From an uncultured archaeon (GTDB lineage Archaea > Asgardarchaeota > Heimdallarchaeia > Heimdallarchaeales > Heimdallarchaeaceae), in the NCBI GenBank assembly GCA_964549075.1, contig CAZJUB010000006.1, forward strand, positions 1 to 64,000: 64,000 bases of DNA, given 5' to 3'. Position numbers and translations under genes: made by a program. The notes under the pieces were generated by a model. That model saw only the letters and a program-made list of their open reading frames with translations. It made no database searches and had not been told where the DNA came from. Positions 34,218 to 46,837 of the stretch are shown piece after piece (position 1 is the first letter of the stretch; each line of letters starts with the position of its first letter).

Positions 34218-34348
34218 ATTCAGACACTAAGCCATATTTTAATAATGCATTAATGAATTTTATTACCTTTACTAGAATGTGTTTTTGTTAAAGCACAAGG
34301 TTGATAAATTAACAACACTCTGTGAGAAAGCAAAGGAAGCAGATGTTA

Positions 34349-37111
34349 ATGTCTTCAGAGAACAATCCAGAAAATGAGTTGTTACAAAGAAAAAACAAAA
34401 CCTCTATCTCTGAAGAAAATTTAATTGATTTTTTCAAAAAATATGGTGTTACATATACTGCAGATTCCGAAGAATTAGCAATTAATCTTGCTTTAAGAGG
34501 GCAACAAGCTTTAAACGACAATGAAATCGACTTAGCTGAAGAAATAAGTAATCTTCTATCAGAGCTCTCTAAGCAATGGAAAGATGGTTTCATAAAAATG
34601 AAATCCCACCTCCTGCAAGCAGAGATTGCTGGTTTTAAAAACGAGGATAAAATTCAGCATTTGAAAAGAGCTCTAAGTTATGCTAAGAAAAATAATGTCC
34701 AAGATGTTGAAATTGGTGTAAGAATCCAACTCGCTTTTGAACAGTTTAAAGAAAGAAGATACAAACAAGTATTGAAAGAACTAAAGATTATTGAAAAACA
34801 TCCTGACTTGTTTGAAGAAAATAAACGAATTATTAAAGAGCTTCGCGCAAGAGTGTTTTGGGATATTGACGATTTTGCTAAAGGATTTGATGCTACCTAT
34901 GCTTGGTATAGCATTTTAAAAAACTCTACAGATGACTTGCATTCACTTTTTATGACTATAGTATATCTCCTTACAGTAATGAATTCAACTCCTTTACCTC
35001 ATTCTCAAAATGAAATAGAAGCTATTAAAACCGATATTACATCTCTACTTACAGAATTAGCTACTTCTGTTCATCTTTTTCCACGAATTCTTCCATTTAT
35101 CGATATATTGTTTGCTAAGTCATTAAAAATGGTTCAACCTGAAATACTATATAATTTTACAGACCTTATTCTTCAAACAGCAAGATGGAATGATGAAGAA
35201 AAGTTTCTATATTTTTGTCAAAAAATTGCAGATGCGTATTATAACATAGATGATTATGATAAAGCAGTTGAATTAGTAGAAAAAGCTATAAAATACACCG
35301 AAGAGAAAAAATACTACAAAGTTAAACAAATTCTGCAGTATAAAAAGACAGAGTTTTCAAGTCTTATCTTTTATTTTATGAATTTTGACTCAATTTTTGA
35401 TCCTTGGATGATTCAAAAAATAAAAATTAACTCAAAAAACACTCCGGAAGAACTCTATTTAGAACCACTTTCTTCAGGTGTAAATACTTTCCCTGCTACT
35501 TCGTATTCACATCTACTTAGAATTTTAGAGAAAGCAAGTGAAAAGTCTGTTGTTGAGAACTCCCTTGAATTAGTTGGTTTAAATGAGGAGGAAGAAAGAG
35601 GTTTTTTTGTTCTTGATATGCAAATAGCTGAGGATAGAATCCGCGTTTTAATGAGAGAGGATTTCAGTGTGGAAACTAAGAAGTTCAAAACACTCCACTC
35701 AACAGTTACTCCTTATTATTCTGTTATAGGTCTAATCTCAAACAAAAGGAAAGATGAAATTGAAGATGTTGAGGAAATAGAAGCAACTTTGTTAAGATTA
35801 CAAAGAGCAATAAATTGTCCTGCTTCAAAGGCAACGATATATCTTACAAAAAAGAAACCATACTTAAACTTGTTTAAATTCTACCTTCAACAAGGCGGTT
35901 TTCGTGATCTTAAAATAAAACTGATTGAATCAGCAAAATCTCTAGGAAGGTACTATGATTTCTCAAAAAGTGATGATTTTCTCCAGATTTTCCAAGCTGA
36001 CCCTATCACAATTTTTGATCTAACTCTAAGAAAATCTCACGAATTACAGCCGCTAACTACTCTAATCAATCAGGCATATAAGCTGAAACTTACCAATAGC
36101 GTTCTTTCAAAATTTCTGGAAGATCTAATGGATCATTTTCTAAAAAGGAGTGATACTAGATTCTGGAGAGAATTTTATTATGAATATGCTTGGTTACAAA
36201 CTCAAGGAGTATTTCTCTCTCTTTCAAATGATGAAAAAGAAGAAAAAAAGCAGACAATTGATGAAGTTTTGTTTTTTGCAGAACATCTCAATAATCCGAA
36301 CAAGATTCTAGAAGGTATTTATTTCCAGACTTATGTGAGCCTTGTAGAAGAGACTGAAGATTTAAAAGATAAAATAGTTCAATTGAAAAAAAAAGCAATT
36401 TCATATGGAAACAAGAAATATGAACTCATCTCAGATATTTTAATGCAGTTACAAGAAACTACTGATTTTTCAACAAGTAACAAAATTGCAGTAATATTGG
36501 CTGATTTCTGCGAATTATGTTCTTTTAGAGATTGGCCTGTAAGTCTAGAACTCTTTATTTATCTACTTAACCAATTACCTCAGTTAACAATTCTATTCGA
36601 AGCTTGTAAAAAACGAGAAGTAAAAGATTCTGGGATTTACTTATATCTACACCTATCGAAATATTTGATTGATATCAAACGTTACGATGAAGCTTTACAA
36701 TTACTACTCTTCATAAAAGAATTATTATCAGAAAGAGAGGATAAATTTACTTTTTCAGAACATACTTGGGTATATCTCAATTTTCTAGCTGAACAATACC
36801 TATATGAAATATATCCACATTTGTCAAAAAAAGAAATCAAAGAGTTTAAGTTAAATAAAGAAAAAATTTTGAAAAATATCCTAATAAAAGATAAATGGAT
36901 TTCTGATCCGATTTATCTGGTACAGATTATAAAAGATTATACTATTTTACTTTTAGATAAATCAGAGTTTTCTATGGGTGAAAAATATTATCATTGGATC
37001 GAACAGCTTATGTTTTATGCATGGGATTTGTTTACTGATGAATCTAATTCTGTTTTACTAAAAGAGATTCAAAATTTGAAAAAACATATTGAAAGTCAAC
37101 ATTTTATTTAA
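34349..37111 (+). CDS. Large alpha-helical (TPR-like solenoid) hypothetical protein
   Basis: 920-aa open frame with TPR-like segments (IADAYYNIDDYDKAVELVEKAI; YLIDIKRYDEALQLL). Start placed at MSSEN (ORF track 34322). Confidence 0.6.
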   Translation: MSSENNPENELLQRKNKTSISEENLIDFFKKYGVTYTADSEELAINLALRGQQALNDNEIDLAEEISNLLSELSKQWKDGFIKMKSHLLQAEIAGFKNEDKIQHLKRALSYAKKNNVQDVEIGVRIQLAFEQFKERRYKQVLKELKIIEKHPDLFEENKRIIKELRARVFWDIDDFAKGFDATYAWYSILKNSTDDLHSLFMTIVYLLTVMNSTPLPHSQNEIEAIKTDITSLLTELATSVHLFPRILPFIDILFAKSLKMVQPEILYNFTDLILQTARWNDEEKFLYFCQKIADAYYNIDDYDKAVELVEKAIKYTEEKKYYKVKQILQYKKTEFSSLIFYFMNFDSIFDPWMIQKIKINSKNTPEELYLEPLSSGVNTFPATSYSHLLRILEKASEKSVVENSLELVGLNEEEERGFFVLDMQIAEDRIRVLMREDFSVETKKFKTLHSTVTPYYSVIGLISNKRKDEIEDVEEIEATLLRLQRAINCPASKATIYLTKKKPYLNLFKFYLQQGGFRDLKIKLIESAKSLGRYYDFSKSDDFLQIFQADPITIFDLTLRKSHELQPLTTLINQAYKLKLTNSVLSKFLEDLMDHFLKRSDTRFWREFYYEYAWLQTQGVFLSLSNDEKEEKKQTIDEVLFFAEHLNNPNKILEGIYFQTYVSLVEETEDLKDKIVQLKKKAISYGNKKYELISDILMQLQETTDFSTSNKIAVILADFCELCSFRDWPVSLELFIYLLNQLPQLTILFEACKKREVKDSGIYLYLHLSKYLIDIKRYDEALQLLLFIKELLSEREDKFTFSEHTWVYLNFLAEQYLYEIYPHLSKKEIKEFKLNKEKILKNILIKDKWISDPIYLVQIIKDYTILLLDKSEFSMGEKYYHWIEQLMFYAWDLFTDESNSVLLKEIQNLKKHIESQHFI

Positions 37112-37371: not shown

Positions 37372-40080
37372 ATGTCTTCAGAACATAATATAGCAATCAT
37401 AACTGTAGGGTATAAGAACAGCCCTTTTGTCAGGGAGGTACTACGTAATGAGATTATCCCCTATTCTTTAATTGCTAACAATACGAGTGATTTTCAAATT
37501 CATCATGCTGATCCTTCAAAGATACTATATTACAGCCTTGAATTTACTAATCTCATTGAAATGATTGCACAAAAAAGTATGGATTCATTAGCGGTGTTTG
37601 AGACACTGGGACAATTTTTTGAATTCTATAATCCTTTAAATCTCTCTACTTTGAATTACTTGATCTCAAAGTATGCAACTAGTATAAAACCTGGTACGAC
37701 TAATTACTGTGAATCATGGAAAAAAATAACTTCTGCTATATTTGAAGAAGTTTTAATACATCCTCTATTTGATGAATCAAGAATCTTTCATCTGAAGCAA
37801 GGAGCTGTAGAAGTTCCGGTACGTCAATTCTTGATATCAGAAATCTTAGAAAGAAAAAAAGATAATTCTAAGAATAATATAAAATTAAAAGAACAAGTTT
37901 TAGAAGATATAACGGGAATTATAGACCTTGATGCTGTTCCAAAGATGAAAATCTGTACTGATGCTACAAAGAAAATCATATCTGCTTCTGGTGTTATTAT
38001 AGTTCCCTCTGACGTTATCTCGTTATATATTTTATTCCAGTCTGCAGCTTTCAAAGATACTTTACAGAAAACTGATGGAAAGATTGCATTTATCTCACCT
38101 TTCTGGACTGAAACTAAGCTCAATCCCGTTGAGAAAGCTATATTGGAGAAAACAGGATTTGAACCTAGTTTAATAAATACTGTAAAACTTGTTAAAGATT
38201 ATGTAGATGCAGTTATAATCGATGATAAAGATACAGAACTAGTTTCAACTCTTAGAGAAGAAGGAATTACAGTACTAGTAGAGGATTTATTACCAGAAAA
38301 CCAGAAAACAAAGGAATTTCTAGATATGATTCTAAAGACAATAGACTTGTCTTTGGATACAATTGCAATTGAACCTAAAGGTTTGATTGAAGGTTTAGGA
38401 GAAAAATTAGTTAGTTTATTTAAAGCAAAAGAACCAAAGGAAATAAGACCGTCATTTGATGATGAAACAACAGAAATCGAGACTATTGAGGATATTGAGG
38501 ATAAAACAATTTTAGACAGTTTAATTGACGAAGAAACTAGTCAGTCAGTAAAAGTGAAATCGAACTTAGAACAAATAAAAACAGATTCTGCAGAATCTGA
38601 TGAAACAGATACTTTAACAGATGAATTTGAAATGGAAGTTATAGATACACAAAAAGAAATACCCACTATACCTACTCCTCCTCCAAAAGAAAGTTCTGTG
38701 AAATCAGATTTACTTATTCAGAAAGCTAATGGAAATTTTGTTCTTCCAGGAATTGAACAAATTACCCAATTTGAGCTTGAAGAATTAGATTCTCTTGATG
38801 TAGATGAACATATTATAAATTCTTTTATCGAAAGAGCCATGACATCAAATGCAGCAGGTATAGAGGTTGTTTTTTCTGATCTGTTATCCTTACAAAATAA
38901 TCCTCTGTTAATCGACAAAATATATCAAACTCTAATGAAAAAGCTAATAAAAATACGCGAAACAAACCCTGAAGAAAAAATTGCTGATATGATAACATAT
39001 CTATCAGCACATAAACCTGATTTTTATACAGAAAGGTTAACAATTCTATTAGAAGATACAATAAAATCTCAAACAGAAAACGCATTCTACCAGAATTTAA
39101 AAACCACTTCCTTAGTTATTAGAAGCTCATTATTGATTGCTGGTGAGATAATTGAACCTTTCATTATCAAGTATATTGGTACGACAGATATTTATCTTGA
39201 AGATAAGCTGCGAAGGATGATCAATTCATTCAGTGTATCAAACCTTGATATGATGATGTTAATCTCTAAAGTACTTTTGCACATATTTGCCATAGAAATA
39301 ACTAAAGAAGAACAAAATGACGAAATAATAAATAGAATTGTTGCTTTCTTAAGTATGTATGATGGTTTTACTGTTAGTATTGCTTTGATTACTCAAGAAT
39401 CAGATGAGGTAAGAGAGAGCTTTTTAGAAGAAATTTCTGAATTACAAATAGATGTTCCATTTAAAACCATAGTTTCGAAACTACTTGGAATATATTATAA
39501 CTCTACATATGATGAATTAGTACAGGAATTACATGGTCGTACTTTACCTGATACAGTGGAACTAGAAATGCTAAAAAGAAAATACATCAGTAGTCTTTCT
39601 AAGGTTGGTTCTATACCTCTAGAATTATTTGCAGAACAAGTTGGTTTAACTGTAGAAAAAGCAGAAAAAATGATTTATACTATGATTCTAAAAGAAGAGA
39701 TAGCTGCAAGGATAGAGTTGGTTAATGGTAGATTATATATTGTACAAGAAGGAAAAGAACCGATACCAGAAGAAGTCTCTGTCCCAGAAGAAGATGAAAA
39801 AGTATCACAAACTGAAGAAGCGAAGAAAGAGAAAATAAAAGATTCAAAAGAAGTCTCTGAAAAACCTTCTAAAGACGAACCTTCTAAAGACGAACCTTCT
39901 AAAGACGAACCTTCTAAAGACGAACCTTCTAAAGACGAACCACCTAAAGATAAAGCACCAAAAAAAGAACTGACTGAAAAAGTAGAAGAATCTGAGGAAT
40001 ATGTTTGTGAGAAATGCGGTAAAAGTTTCACAACTAAACGGGGTTTATCTATGCATATTAACAGAGTGCATAAAGAATAA
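37372..40080 (+). CDS. Multidomain protein: degenerate CofD/UPF0052-like domain + helical solenoid + PCI/winged-helix + PSKDE repeats + C2H2 zinc finger
   Basis: CofD-like VII.PS, ISP and G.EPS......VDA.IID..D; PCI-like SIPL..FAE..GL.....E..I..MI....I.ARI...NG; terminal CEKC...H....H. Confidence 0.68.
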   Translation: MSSEHNIAIITVGYKNSPFVREVLRNEIIPYSLIANNTSDFQIHHADPSKILYYSLEFTNLIEMIAQKSMDSLAVFETLGQFFEFYNPLNLSTLNYLISKYATSIKPGTTNYCESWKKITSAIFEEVLIHPLFDESRIFHLKQGAVEVPVRQFLISEILERKKDNSKNNIKLKEQVLEDITGIIDLDAVPKMKICTDATKKIISASGVIIVPSDVISLYILFQSAAFKDTLQKTDGKIAFISPFWTETKLNPVEKAILEKTGFEPSLINTVKLVKDYVDAVIIDDKDTELVSTLREEGITVLVEDLLPENQKTKEFLDMILKTIDLSLDTIAIEPKGLIEGLGEKLVSLFKAKEPKEIRPSFDDETTEIETIEDIEDKTILDSLIDEETSQSVKVKSNLEQIKTDSAESDETDTLTDEFEMEVIDTQKEIPTIPTPPPKESSVKSDLLIQKANGNFVLPGIEQITQFELEELDSLDVDEHIINSFIERAMTSNAAGIEVVFSDLLSLQNNPLLIDKIYQTLMKKLIKIRETNPEEKIADMITYLSAHKPDFYTERLTILLEDTIKSQTENAFYQNLKTTSLVIRSSLLIAGEIIEPFIIKYIGTTDIYLEDKLRRMINSFSVSNLDMMMLISKVLLHIFAIEITKEEQNDEIINRIVAFLSMYDGFTVSIALITQESDEVRESFLEEISELQIDVPFKTIVSKLLGIYYNSTYDELVQELHGRTLPDTVELEMLKRKYISSLSKVGSIPLELFAEQVGLTVEKAEKMIYTMILKEEIAARIELVNGRLYIVQEGKEPIPEEVSVPEEDEKVSQTEEAKKEKIKDSKEVSEKPSKDEPSKDEPSKDEPSKDEPSKDEPPKDKAPKKELTEKVEESEEYVCEKCGKSFTTKRGLSMHINRVHKE
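39865..39954 (+). repeat. In-frame 15-bp tandem repeat (CCTTCTAAAGACGAA) x5 plus one degenerate copy, encoding PSKDE
   Basis: Five perfect contiguous copies at 39865-39939, then CCACCTAAAGATAAA. Confidence 0.97.
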
Positions 40081-40139: not shown

Positions 40140-40664
40140 ATGAGAAAAAAGCAAGTTGCAGTGATTGGTTCAGGTACTGTTAACAAGAAGAGTGATAGTT
40201 TTACTTTAGCCATTAAATTAGGTCAACATTTGATAGATTCAGATTACCGAATTTTGTGCGGGGGATTGGAAGGCATTATGGCAGCTGTTTGTAAAGGAGC
40301 GAAATTGTCTGACAATTATAAAGAAGGAATGACAGTGGGGATTATTCCATCTCTTGACAAATCTATAAGCAATCCATATGTTGACATAAGTATCGCTACT
40401 GGAGTTTCATTTGCTAGAAATCAAATCATTATAGCTTCTGCGGATGCTGTAATAGCAATTGGAGGAGGAGCAGGAACTTTATCAGAATTATCTTTTGCTT
40501 GGCAATTGAAGAAACCAATTTTAGCTTTCATTAATGCTGAAGGTTGGTCTAACAAACTAGCAGGAAAACGAATTGATAACTCACGAACTGATGTAATTAT
40601 AGCATGTCAGTCTGTAGAAGCTGCAATAACTCATTTAAGTAGAATTTTTAACAATATTCAATAA
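40140..40664 (+). CDS. TIGR00725 / LOG-like (SLOG) nucleotide-binding protein
   Basis: VAVIGS, CGG..GIM.A, VGIIP, ARN.II, GG.AGTLSE motifs. Confidence 0.9.
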   Translation: MRKKQVAVIGSGTVNKKSDSFTLAIKLGQHLIDSDYRILCGGLEGIMAAVCKGAKLSDNYKEGMTVGIIPSLDKSISNPYVDISIATGVSFARNQIIIASADAVIAIGGGAGTLSELSFAWQLKKPILAFINAEGWSNKLAGKRIDNSRTDVIIACQSVEAAITHLSRIFNNIQ

Positions 40665-40707: not shown

Positions 40708-41706
40708 ATGCTAGTATGTCTGTTTAAGTTGGAGGAAATAGGTCCTGACTTGGTTGAAATGGTTTTGGATAAGAACGTTGAATTTTCACAAGAAACAATT
40801 GATAAATTTACATTTTCAGGATCTGTTACTTATTCACTTATCTTTCAAGGTATGCTTACATTAGATGATATGACTACTGAGCTTTATGGTCCTTTTCCAT
40901 TTGCGTTTTCGTCAGGTTTCGTTCAATATGCATTTTCCTTTATTGCAGAAGATAAAACTATGACAGATGAAAGAATGAAAGAAAAAACCTTAGGACTTTT
41001 AATAATGTTAGTACCAGAGATGGTCTCAAAAATTGATACTTTCAGAGAAGAATTAGCTAAAACTCTAATCTATAAATTTCATAAAATCTATAAAATCTCA
41101 CAAGTAGATACACAGTTCCTTAAAGATATAATTACTTCTTACAACGAAATCCTACAAGATTTACTAAGCTCTCAACAAGCTGAGCTTCTTTCGAAACAAA
41201 TCTTAGAGTTCTTGAAATCTACACCAAAACCAAAAAAGAAAGACATACAAAAAATTGCTATTGTCTATCCTGATGAGTTTTCTGGAAATATCAAGAAATA
41301 TTATGCTTCTTTACTCAGTTCTTTACCGTATACAGAAACATCATTCTCAGAAAACAAAGCATATATTCAGACTCCTACCTATGAGTTTAACTTCATTAAA
41401 GATATAGCTGTAACTGAAGATTTTCTTAAATCCCAAAAAGCTATGATTTTATTAGCAGATGTTAAAAATAAGAGGTATAAAAGCGTCTATGATGTTGCAT
41501 CAATGATAAAAAGTCCGATGAAAATTGCTTTGGTAGTCTCTCTTCCTGAAAAGATAGAAAAGGCTAGCACTGAGTATGCTAAGTTCTTTACTGGTTTGCA
41601 AAGATATTTAGGAAGCATGCCTTTCTTTTCAGCAAGCTTTAATTCTAGTTACGAATTTAAAAGTAAAATGCTAGAAGCATTATTTTGGACCTTATCTCCA
41701 GAGTAA
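40708..41706 (+). CDS. Hypothetical protein: longin/uDENN-like N-domain + degenerate small-GTPase-like C-domain
   Basis: N-terminal LF.LEEIGP...LYGP.P...YAF...D...D.R; C-terminal KIAIV, AMILLADV, IALVV, FFSAS follows GTPase strand order without P-loop residues. Confidence 0.45.
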   Translation: MLVCLFKLEEIGPDLVEMVLDKNVEFSQETIDKFTFSGSVTYSLIFQGMLTLDDMTTELYGPFPFAFSSGFVQYAFSFIAEDKTMTDERMKEKTLGLLIMLVPEMVSKIDTFREELAKTLIYKFHKIYKISQVDTQFLKDIITSYNEILQDLLSSQQAELLSKQILEFLKSTPKPKKKDIQKIAIVYPDEFSGNIKKYYASLLSSLPYTETSFSENKAYIQTPTYEFNFIKDIAVTEDFLKSQKAMILLADVKNKRYKSVYDVASMIKSPMKIALVVSLPEKIEKASTEYAKFFTGLQRYLGSMPFFSASFNSSYEFKSKMLEALFWTLSPE

Positions 41707-46324: not shown

Positions 46325-46837
46325 CTAGTTTTTAATACCTAACGCAATTTCTATAATTTTACGGAAAACGGGATAAAGATTCTTATCTTCCTTTGCTGAG
46401 ACCTCAAAGTAAGCTGTCTTAAGTTCAGAAGCAACTCTCTCAACATCTTCAAGTTTTACTTCTCGTTTTTCTTCTAAATCAGTCTTATTACCTATAATAA
46501 TAAACGGAATATCTCCAACAGATTCATATAGTAAATCTTTCCAATAACCTAATCTATCAAAACTCTCTTTATTGGTTATATCATAAATAAGTGCTGCAAT
46601 AGCTGAACCTTGAAAATATTTGGGTAAAACTGGTAAAAACCTCTCCTGGGAGCCAGAATCACCAATAATTAGCTTAATATCCTTACCATCGATCATTGTT
46701 TCCCAGATAAGAAAGTTTGCTCCTAATGTTGGTTGGTGAGATACAGGAAAGGAACCTTGAGCTTGTCTTAGTGCAATTGATGTTTTACCTACTCCTGGTT
46801 CTCCGCATAAAGATACTTTTAAGCTAATATCAGTCAT
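46325..46837 (-). CDS. Rab-like small GTPase (Ras superfamily)
   Basis: G1 GEPGVGKT, G2 PTLG, G3 variant DSGSQERF, G4 NKTD, G5 SAK; no C-terminal prenylation motif. Confidence 0.93.
   Translation of the reverse strand: MTDISLKVSLCGEPGVGKTSIALRQAQGSFPVSHQPTLGANFLIWETMIDGKDIKLIIGDSGSQERFLPVLPKYFQGSAIAALIYDITNKESFDRLGYWKDLLYESVGDIPFIIIGNKTDLEEKREVKLEDVERVASELKTAYFEVSAKEDKNLYPVFRKIIEIALGIKN

Follow-up and report, generated by a model that had tools for sequence, protein, structure and literature searches.

A CofD-derived domain fused to a PCI-type module and a C2H2 zinc finger in Heimdall-group Asgard archaea

Background

Does an archaeal gene that reads as an enzyme of cofactor biosynthesis joined to a module of the kind found in the lid of the 26S proteasome, the COP9 signalosome (CSN) and eIF3 represent a genuine protein, and if so, what might such a protein do? 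The question is raised by a gene of 902 codons in the first 64,000 nucleotides (henceforth the window) of contig CAZJUB010000006.1, from the assembly GCA_964549075.1 of an uncultured archaeon of the family Heimdallarchaeaceae. The window is AT-rich, with a GC content of about 0.30, and the source genome has a completeness of 89.7 % and a contamination of 3.4 %. The original prediction, made from the nucleotide sequence alone, described the gene product as a degenerate CofD-like domain followed by an acidic linker, a helical solenoid, a PCI-like winged helix, PSKDE repeats and a terminal C2H2 finger, and interpreted it as a pseudo-enzyme repurposed as a metabolite sensor on a eukaryote-like scaffold.

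Here we report that this architecture is real, that its N-terminal domain (henceforth the head) is a descendant of the 2-phospho-L-lactate transferase CofD, which acts in F420 synthesis, and that its C-terminal module can with moderate confidence be called PCI-type. The best reading of the whole, which we put forward tentatively, is that of an adaptor or regulator which forms dimers, binds a nucleotide-type ligand and makes contact with nucleic acid. In keeping with the original remark that the architecture had not been described, our literature searches recovered no paper joining CofD with a PCI domain; the supplementary tables of Asgard genomics papers, which lay outside these searches, could list the family, and homologues already carry the name 'PCI domain-containing protein' in NCBI records. 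Where PCI is mentioned in the Asgard papers recovered, other proteins are meant, in one work solely ESCRT-linked kinases and HTH/PCI domains, and according to a paper of 2018 no PCI complexes are known from archaea.

Results and discussion

The fusion is a genuine architecture

The gene is a single open reading frame (ORF) with exactly the boundaries, strand and length first given for it (Table 1), and the order of its domains was borne out domain by domain by Pfam and NCBIfam profiles, structural models and structural matches. A word-indexed protein search recovered 60 matches, of which 59 are near-full-length relatives with 40-94 % identity; most of these are labelled Heimdallarchaeota or Heimdallarchaeaceae, and they lie on contigs of up to 3.08 Mb. 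Four further DNA runs yielded contigs at least 99 % identical to the gene, which are short, so that none spans it whole, and which together tile most of it, showing neither loose ends nor any alternative joint. The fusion architecture is also present in two single-contig genomes (G026 and G074), and related genomes contain ORFs with both of its halves (see below). An assembly chimera, one of the outcomes named as refuting the original prediction, is ruled out by the 59 homologues, the 3.08-Mb contig, the two single-contig genomes and the joint-free contigs. The fusion of a CofD-like head, an acidic linker, a solenoid, a PCI-type winged helix, repeats and a C2H2 finger is hence confirmed as a real architecture. 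The linker varies in length across the family alignment and contains a conserved motif, LTDEFEMEVID. For structural analysis residues 1-350 (with AlphaFold) and 452-902 were modelled, the linker residues 351-451 lying outside both.

The head descends from CofD

The head model has a mean predicted local distance difference test score (pLDDT) of 80 and a predicted template modelling score of 0.86, with residues 72-93 falling below a pLDDT of 50. Its best structural counterparts are FbiA (6uvx_B; Z 22.2, 283 residues, 3.7 A) and CofD (3c3d_A; Z 21.9, 281 residues, 3.4 A), compared with a Z of 9.3 for the nearest unrelated fold, and Foldseek agrees with the assignment (E 8.7e-12). Thus, the N-terminal domain does possess the CofD fold, a point on which the original prediction had been made to depend. 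The YvcK/GlmR-type proteins of the UPF0052 family (2q7x, 2ppv, 2o2z, 2hzb) share the same superfamily fold; unlike CofD and FbiA, they match the head more weakly, both in structural alignment (Z 15.9 for the YvcK-like 2q7x_B, 249 residues, 4.2 A) and in Foldseek (E 3e-7 to 7e-6).

At the sequence level the relationship is remote. The Pfam CofD model PF01933 has no match in the fusion at E<=1, and the NCBIfam CofD model TIGR01819, the sole NCBIfam model to match the head, covers only residues 188-313 and scores 29.7 bits where its cut-off is 257.45; unlike CofD and FbiA proper, the head therefore falls below both curated family thresholds. A family profile run by sequence against the PDB gave nothing significant (best E 0.27), and hhalign of a shallow head profile with the single CofD of the same genome gave a match confined to the last 97 columns at the C-terminus, with a probability of 25 %. 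Detection of homology with the shallow profile needed a profile of 17 canonical Asgard CofDs as its counterpart: global alignment with this profile gave 98.3 % probability (E 9.4e-14), and a deep profile of 29 head sequences aligned with the same 17 proteins over 299 columns at 99.7 % (E 2.4e-25). Together with a shared fold over about 280 residues, these alignments show that the head descends from CofD.

This descent does not make the fusion the CofD of the F420 pathway. A separate canonical CofD with the classical motifs (161.6 bits) is encoded on contig 9 of the same genome, about 1 kb from CofC, and the genome also contains two CofE homologues. Designating the home family Heimdallarchaeaceae as f1 and other families surveyed as f2 to f6 and f33, a canonical CofD was found alongside the fusion in all genomes sampled for it from f1 (13/13), f2 (4/4) and f5 (7/7). 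The idea that the fusion is the F420-pathway enzyme of this organism with extra domains, for which the partial TIGR01819 match is the sole support, is ruled out by the separate canonical CofD near CofC; taken jointly with the assembly chimera, it can for practical purposes be dismissed.

Another F420-related locus in the genome deserves mention in its own right. On contig 7 (G000, L066:138-2934, reverse strand) a gene for a 348-residue kinase-like protein, a gene for a 286-residue JAMM/MPN protease and a CofE homologue form a co-directional set, the protease having an intact HxHx7Sx2D motif and a hydrophobic segment at its C-terminus. The adjacency of JAMM and CofE was considered as a parallel to the CofD-PCI fusion and set aside: it occurs in 26 of 28 f1 loci, and is missing in genus g3 and in two f2/f4 loci.

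The pocket of the head is remodelled

To read the head against known CofD chemistry we aligned the canonical CofD of the same genome with FbiA (6uvx). In FbiA, which is reported to have been co-purified together with its product, the catalytic metal is held by Asp45, Asp57 and the beta-phosphate of guanosine diphosphate (PMC7253369), and a second source describes CofD Asp46, the equivalent of FbiA Asp57, as important for activity (PMC8498797). In our alignment Asp45 corresponds to the first Asp of an 'ADD' motif and Asp57 to the Asp of 'SPD'.

Thirteen positions are common to at least 85 % of the 29 deep-family head sequences, from which the N-terminally truncated or duplicate rows P0076, P0078 and f3_L051 had been left out: G13 (28 of 29), D40 (26), E57 (29), L79 (27), P131 (28), L132 (25), P149 (25), R151 (29), D214 (29), S217 (26), E254 (26), D279 (27) and G298 (28). 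Six of them (G13, D40, P131, S217, D279 and G298) are identical to conserved CofD positions, and a further two are conserved CofD positions at which the residue has changed, namely D214, which stands for the Asn of PSNP, and R151, which stands for the Glu of HFQE. The Gly-rich loop GGxG (GGTG) is absent, as had been claimed, and is aligned to V12-G13-Y14-K15, of which G13 alone is kept. With the deep profile D40 pairs with the leading Asp of the DD dyad, which in FbiA is the metal ligand Asp45 (83 % probability in the local alignment of residues 7-46), a placement that the shallow-profile alignment shifts by one position to the second Asp of the dyad. The other metal ligand, the Asp of SPD, is aligned with low confidence to S49 (shallow profile) or K50 (deep profile). 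The invariant E57 lies 7-8 residues past these, in an insertion, and in the model occupies the start of a helix (56-69) that follows a strand (51-54); it may substitute for the second metal ligand.

Among the 17 canonical CofDs the motifs WGxxxDTF, GDxDxxTH and HFQE are either invariant or missing from a single sequence. Unlike CofD and FbiA, the head lacks GGxG, SPDxD and any counterpart of WGxxxDTF and GDxDxxTH, and has an invariant Arg for the Glu of HFQE; the acceptor-side motifs are replaced by FETLGQFFxFYNPLxLSTLNYL, seen in f1 and f33 only, along with R151. With CofD and FbiA it shares the loop's second Gly, the dyad's first Asp, the Pro that precedes the acceptor subdomain, PS(N/D)xxS, ISP and later Asp and Gly positions, and the CofD-like segments picked out in the original prediction were found again (VIIVPS at residues 207-213, ISP at 241-243 and GFEPS...VDAVIIDDKD at 262-286). 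As far as alignment can tell, this pattern of kept and lost residues shows that the nucleotide side of the pocket is largely kept and that its acceptor (Fo) side was reconstructed about the new invariant residues E57 and R151. The retention of D40 and of the nucleotide-side motifs, with invariant E57, R151 and D214, argues that the pocket is under selection and that the head is, on these alignments, remodelled rather than simply dead. The earlier statement that it lacks the D-rich catalytic motifs holds for SPDxD, GDxDxxTH and others, and fails for D40, which is kept at the metal-ligand position of FbiA Asp45.

Two alternatives for the head bear on this evidence. The loss of the catalytic-type motifs would be expected if the head were a dead pseudo-enzyme that had become a ligand-free structural or dimerisation domain. 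We regard this as very improbable: conservation within the fusion protein is highest in the head, where it falls on polar or charged residues, several of which align to CofD pocket motifs, and the head also occurs as a stand-alone protein. The latter situation is seen in f33, where the fusion, a 505-residue dehydrogenase of the Octopine_DH / NAD_Gly3P_dh_N type and a stand-alone head paralogue of 366-368 residues form a co-directional string (L058:5447-10523 and L059:8568-13528); these paralogues support the head being an autonomous unit.

The same string can also be cited for the opposite alternative, in which the head is an active, neofunctionalised transferase that uses a donor activated by a nucleoside diphosphate and a new, possibly macromolecular, acceptor, with the PCI module and the tail delivering the enzyme. 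The position of D40 on the FbiA metal ligand, the retained nucleotide-side motifs and the invariance of E57, R151 and D214 among sequences that are otherwise about 22-25 % identical all agree with this, and the authors of the FbiA study liken its reaction geometry to the last step of DNA ligation (PMC7253369). However, the GGxG loop is gone, the second metal ligand (FbiA Asp57, CofD Asp46) has no confidently aligned acidic counterpart, Ser or Lys standing there instead, and no CofC-like gene that might make the donor was seen among the neighbours scanned, so that we consider a transferase unlikely, with a modest chance of being right. The original notion of a pseudo-enzyme turned metabolite sensor, for its part, remains plausible with respect to the lost Gly-rich loop and acceptor motifs, but the kept D40 and nucleotide-side motifs make residual or new catalysis possible.

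The C-terminal module is probably PCI-type

The model of residues 452-902 (pLDDT 74) consists of 15 helices followed by a winged helix at residues 747-792 with the order strand-helix-helix-strand-strand. The pLDDT is mostly 75-94 over the module and mostly 80-94 in the solenoid helices, and the chain after the winged helix is predicted to be disordered (pLDDT 29-46). Pfam PF01399 (PCI) matches residues 716-790 with 29.1 bits against a cut-off of 22 (34.7 bits in the genome scan); the corresponding DNA, 39517-39741, overlaps the segment of about 39585-39740 in which a PCI-like winged helix had been predicted. Seventeen of the 22 Foldseek rows listed at E<1e-3 come from COP9 signalosome, 26S proteasome or 43S/48S initiation-complex structures, and the other five are designed armadillo proteins. 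An unbiased VIA-align search found the PCI domain of CSN7 with a Z of 9.8 (141 residues, 4.0 A), and re-scoring of the top Foldseek chains gave a best Z of 11.2, with CSN7 at 10.6 (138 residues, 3.7 A). Among the 50 re-scored rows shown, 36 are CSN, lid or eIF3 proteins, 13 are helical proteins of non-PCI type whose alignment is confined to the first half, and one is unclear; MIF4G/HEAT-type proteins match just the first half of the solenoid with a Z of about 10.

With Z 9.8-11.2, the structural matches to PCI proteins all fall short of the caution line for helical repeat proteins (about 13), and 4 of 14 prokaryotic control genomes likewise yield matches to the Pfam PCI model, in one of them above its cut-off. 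Therefore, we call the module PCI-type with moderate confidence. Within its own genome no gene other than the fusion exceeds the cut-off of the Pfam PCI model. Two weaker matches there, to a 146-residue ArsR-like winged helix-turn-helix protein and to another with several winged-helix-like segments, were rejected as not being PCI proteins.

Like the PCI subunits of the CSN, the 26S lid and eIF3 (such as CSN7, 3chm and 9qo4_G, or the lid chains 9nkg_W and 5gjq_O), the fusion combines helical repeats with a winged helix and exceeds the Pfam gathering score. Unlike them, it is encoded by a single such gene in its genome, is predicted to be disordered where a bundle-forming helix would follow the winged helix, and bears an enzyme-derived head as well as, in f1, a tail of a nucleic-acid-binding kind.

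A difference in the mode of association is also predicted. When two copies of residues 456-796 were folded together, alongside three controls, the homodimer obtained a median score of 0.61 against 0.01 for the best control; among proteins of solved structure, the mark applied is attained by 20 of 30 that are pairs of one chain and by 1 of 23 that are single chains. Contacts agree between the runs to at least 81 %, with a partner pLDDT of at least 77. The predicted interface is two-fold symmetric and lies in the solenoid (residues ~486-582, 607-625, 654-666, 690-700 and 720-723), the winged helix being outside it. The PCI module is thus predicted to homodimerise via its solenoid with both winged helices left free, unlike eukaryotic PCI complexes, in which contact is made through a horseshoe of winged helices. 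The description of this part of the protein as a eukaryote-like scaffold accordingly stands as regards the Pfam PCI match above threshold and the preponderance of CSN, lid and eIF3 proteins among the structural matches, but is tempered by the moderate Z scores, the matches in control genomes and the predicted solenoid dimer.

Distribution of the fusion and variation of its tail

An exhaustive profile search of 1.84 billion representative proteins returned only 110 at E<=0.001. Thirty of these were scanned with Pfam: 16 have a PCI match at E<=0.01, above the cut-off in 11 of them, and six have a sub-threshold CofD match. As the original prediction had proposed, we looked for the same architecture in other Asgard genomes, surveying 400 genomes of the phylum for ORFs matching both halves. 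Two-domain ORFs of ~730-900 residues were found in f1 (29/30 genomes), f3 (1/1), f2 (10/12) and f5 (18/22, of the same class), and also in f33 (4/4), which belongs to another class and gave surprisingly strong matches (E ~1e-125) and extra copies, one genome (G337) having two full fusions. Most of the genomes sampled from these five related Heimdall-group families contain the fusion, usually in a single copy.

Other families show parts of the architecture. All three f4 genomes have matches to the C-terminal half only, within frames of 816-893 residues, and 10 of 12 f6 genomes have the PCI half in ORFs of 524-637 residues; matches in the remaining families of the survey were discarded as cross-matches to canonical CofD. 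Two related proteins from the exhaustive search, P0111 and P0113 (602 and 612 residues), have HEAT repeats before the PCI-matching part and no CofD-like head, and the former additionally has a weak PRC-barrel match. Hence, the PCI-type module appears to combine with different heads.

The region past the winged helix contains the PSKDE-coding repeat, which is present as predicted, Tandem Repeats Finder delimiting a 15-bp unit repeated 5.9 times at 39863-39950. The terminal C2H2 finger also proved to be present at its predicted place: PF00096 matches residues 877-900 with 25.2 bits, a score equal to the cut-off, the pattern C879-x2-C882-x12-H895-x4-H900 is readable in the sequence, and the segment is modelled as beta-beta-alpha with a pLDDT of about 90. 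Its phmmer matches include fingers of ZBTB24, ZBTB17 and CTCF (E 0.003-0.03). Across the 59 f1 homologues the tail is a C2H2 finger in 35, Lys/Arg-rich in 12, a helix-hairpin-helix in seven and of another kind in five. C2H2, Lys/Arg-rich and helix-hairpin-helix tails are all nucleic-acid-binding in kind. In the members examined from f2, f3, f5 and f33 the protein ends ~10-30 residues past the winged helix, with no tail, and in one f4 member it runs on into a longer, charged tail. The C2H2, helix-hairpin-helix or Lys-rich tail is therefore an addition at the level of the home family.

The distribution, with the structural matches, is what one might expect of a protein-protein scaffold that nucleates a PCI-type assembly, a counterpart or forerunner of the lid, the CSN or eIF3 in which the head would be regulatory or used for docking and nucleic acid would be inessential. 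The presence of two-domain ORFs in five families at the above frequencies, the status of the fusion as the sole gene above the PCI cut-off, the 36 of 50 re-scored matches that are CSN, lid or eIF3 proteins, the missing tail outside f1 and the two JAMM/MPN genes of the genome can all be adduced for it. However, one PCI gene per genome would leave no room for a hetero-oligomeric horseshoe, disorder rather than a bundle-forming helix is predicted after the winged helix, the predicted self-contact runs via the solenoid and not between winged helices, and neither JAMM/MPN gene is near the fusion locus. On balance we give a scaffold of this kind a small chance, and keep to the tentative reading of a dimeric, ligand-binding adaptor or regulator.

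Gene neighborhoods

The genes around the fusion in the window (Table 1) were compared with those at related loci. The upstream, co-oriented gene for a 929-residue helical protein is also adjacent and co-oriented in L060, of the same genus g1 (63 % identity), and in L049 and L061 of g3 (28-29 %), and its product is a possible partner of the fusion. The downstream gene for a 332-residue protein keeps its adjacency in g1 and g2 (79 % identity in L060, 55 % in L050). The gene between this and the fusion, related to SLOG cluster 4, was rejected as a partner since it is missing at this position in all 14 related loci, including L060 of the same genus, and looks like a local insertion. A gene for a DUF389 membrane protein is a convergent downstream neighbour in g3 (L049:6852-7820, and L061) and in f5 (L054-L056), and is the only neighbour shared across the distance from g3, within f1, to f5. 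No neighbour is conserved across orders among the related loci compared.

Table 1. Features of the fusion gene and of its co-oriented neighbors, in window coordinates
Feature	Position	Strand	Basis
929-residue helical protein, upstream, co-oriented	34322..37111	+	only weak TPR matches in Pfam
Whole gene: CofD-fold / PCI / C2H2 fusion, 902 residues	37372..40080	+	single ORF
Remodelled CofD-fold head, residues 1-345	37372..38406	+	predicted structure and profile comparison
Acidic linker, residues 346-455	38407..38736	+	alignment and composition
All-helical solenoid, N-terminal half of the PCI module, residues 456-746	38737..39609	+	model
Winged helix of the PCI module, residues 747-792	39610..39747	+	Pfam and model
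Low-complexity linker with PSKDE repeats, predicted disordered, residues 793-876	39748..39999	+	pLDDT 29-46 and Tandem Repeats Finder
Single C2H2 zinc finger, residues 877-900	40000..40071	+	Pfam PF00096 and model
SLOG cluster-4 / TIGR00725 (LOG-like) gene, between the fusion and the 332-residue protein gene	40140-40664	+	family matches
332-residue protein, downstream, co-oriented	40708..41706	+	no Pfam/NCBIfam family match

Three further observations concern genes at some distance from the fusion or in single lineages. First, a Ras-family small GTPase is encoded in the window at 46325-46837 on the reverse strand, and such genes lie within ~2-7 kb of the fusion also in L050, L053, L057, L060 and L062, a recurrence that covers f1, f2 and f33 loci; Asgard genomes contain many genes of this family, and the proximity may be due to chance. 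Second, in the f2 loci L053 (11109-11870) and L062 a gene of the PAC2 family (proteasome assembly chaperone 2) and a small GTPase-like gene stand directly upstream of the fusion, in orientations that differ between the two loci. Third, in genus g2 a 972-residue protein with TIR and SAVED domains, an architecture of the defence-system type, is encoded ~5 kb from the fusion (L050:15316-18231, reverse strand).

A possible mode of action

If the fusion is, as we tentatively propose, a dimeric adaptor or regulator, its parts could cooperate as follows. The head would bind a nucleotide-linked metabolite other than the substrate pair of CofD; the solenoid is predicted to pair two chains two-fold symmetrically with both winged helices exposed, and these would engage either nucleic acid or a partner protein. 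The winged helices may be assisted, in Heimdallarchaeaceae, by the swappable C2H2, helix-hairpin-helix or Lys-rich tail. The occupancy of the head by its ligand would be relayed through the acidic linker, and the whole would amount to a large one-component, metabolite-responsive regulator on a PCI-type scaffold. YvcK/GlmR provides a precedent for a CofD-fold protein that acts as a regulator and binds a nucleotide sugar. By analogy, the fusion may be likened to prokaryotic one-component regulators, in which a ligand-binding domain is joined to a dimerising winged-helix module; unlike these it is much bigger, carries a PCI-type winged helix on a solenoid of ~290 residues, and has a contact with DNA that is putative.

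Several of the observations made above weigh against this proposal. The invariant charged residues of the head suit an active enzyme as well as a sensor, the structural scores for the PCI module stay below the caution line, and the gene neighborhoods differ between lineages and offer no functional anchor. Moreover, as members from f2, f3, f5 and f33 have no tail, tethering to nucleic acid by the tail cannot be the ancestral function.

Conclusions

The present analysis adds the mapping of the invariant residues of the deep family onto CofD motifs, the distribution of the fusion by family, the f33 paralogues of the head, the restriction of the tail to f1 and a controlled homodimer prediction. 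The Heimdall group is the Asgard lineage usually placed closest to eukaryotes, and one may ask whether the fusion family is an archaeal forerunner of the eukaryotic PCI scaffold: a single-copy, homodimeric, metabolite-gated protein with a catalytic or ligand-gated head, whose solenoid and winged helix were later duplicated and freed of the head to give rise to the lid, the CSN and eIF3. We consider this a long shot; if true, it would mean that the ancestral function of PCI proteins was tied to nucleotide-linked metabolism. Should the module be related to the eukaryotic PCI scaffolds at all, the fusion would offer a simpler, tractable relative, with one gene and a predicted homodimer, in which to study what PCI domains did before the lid, the CSN and eIF3. 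As for the head, it is a clear case of the CofD fold leaving F420 synthesis with a pocket that appears to be under strong selection, which points to a new ligand or a new reaction in these archaea.

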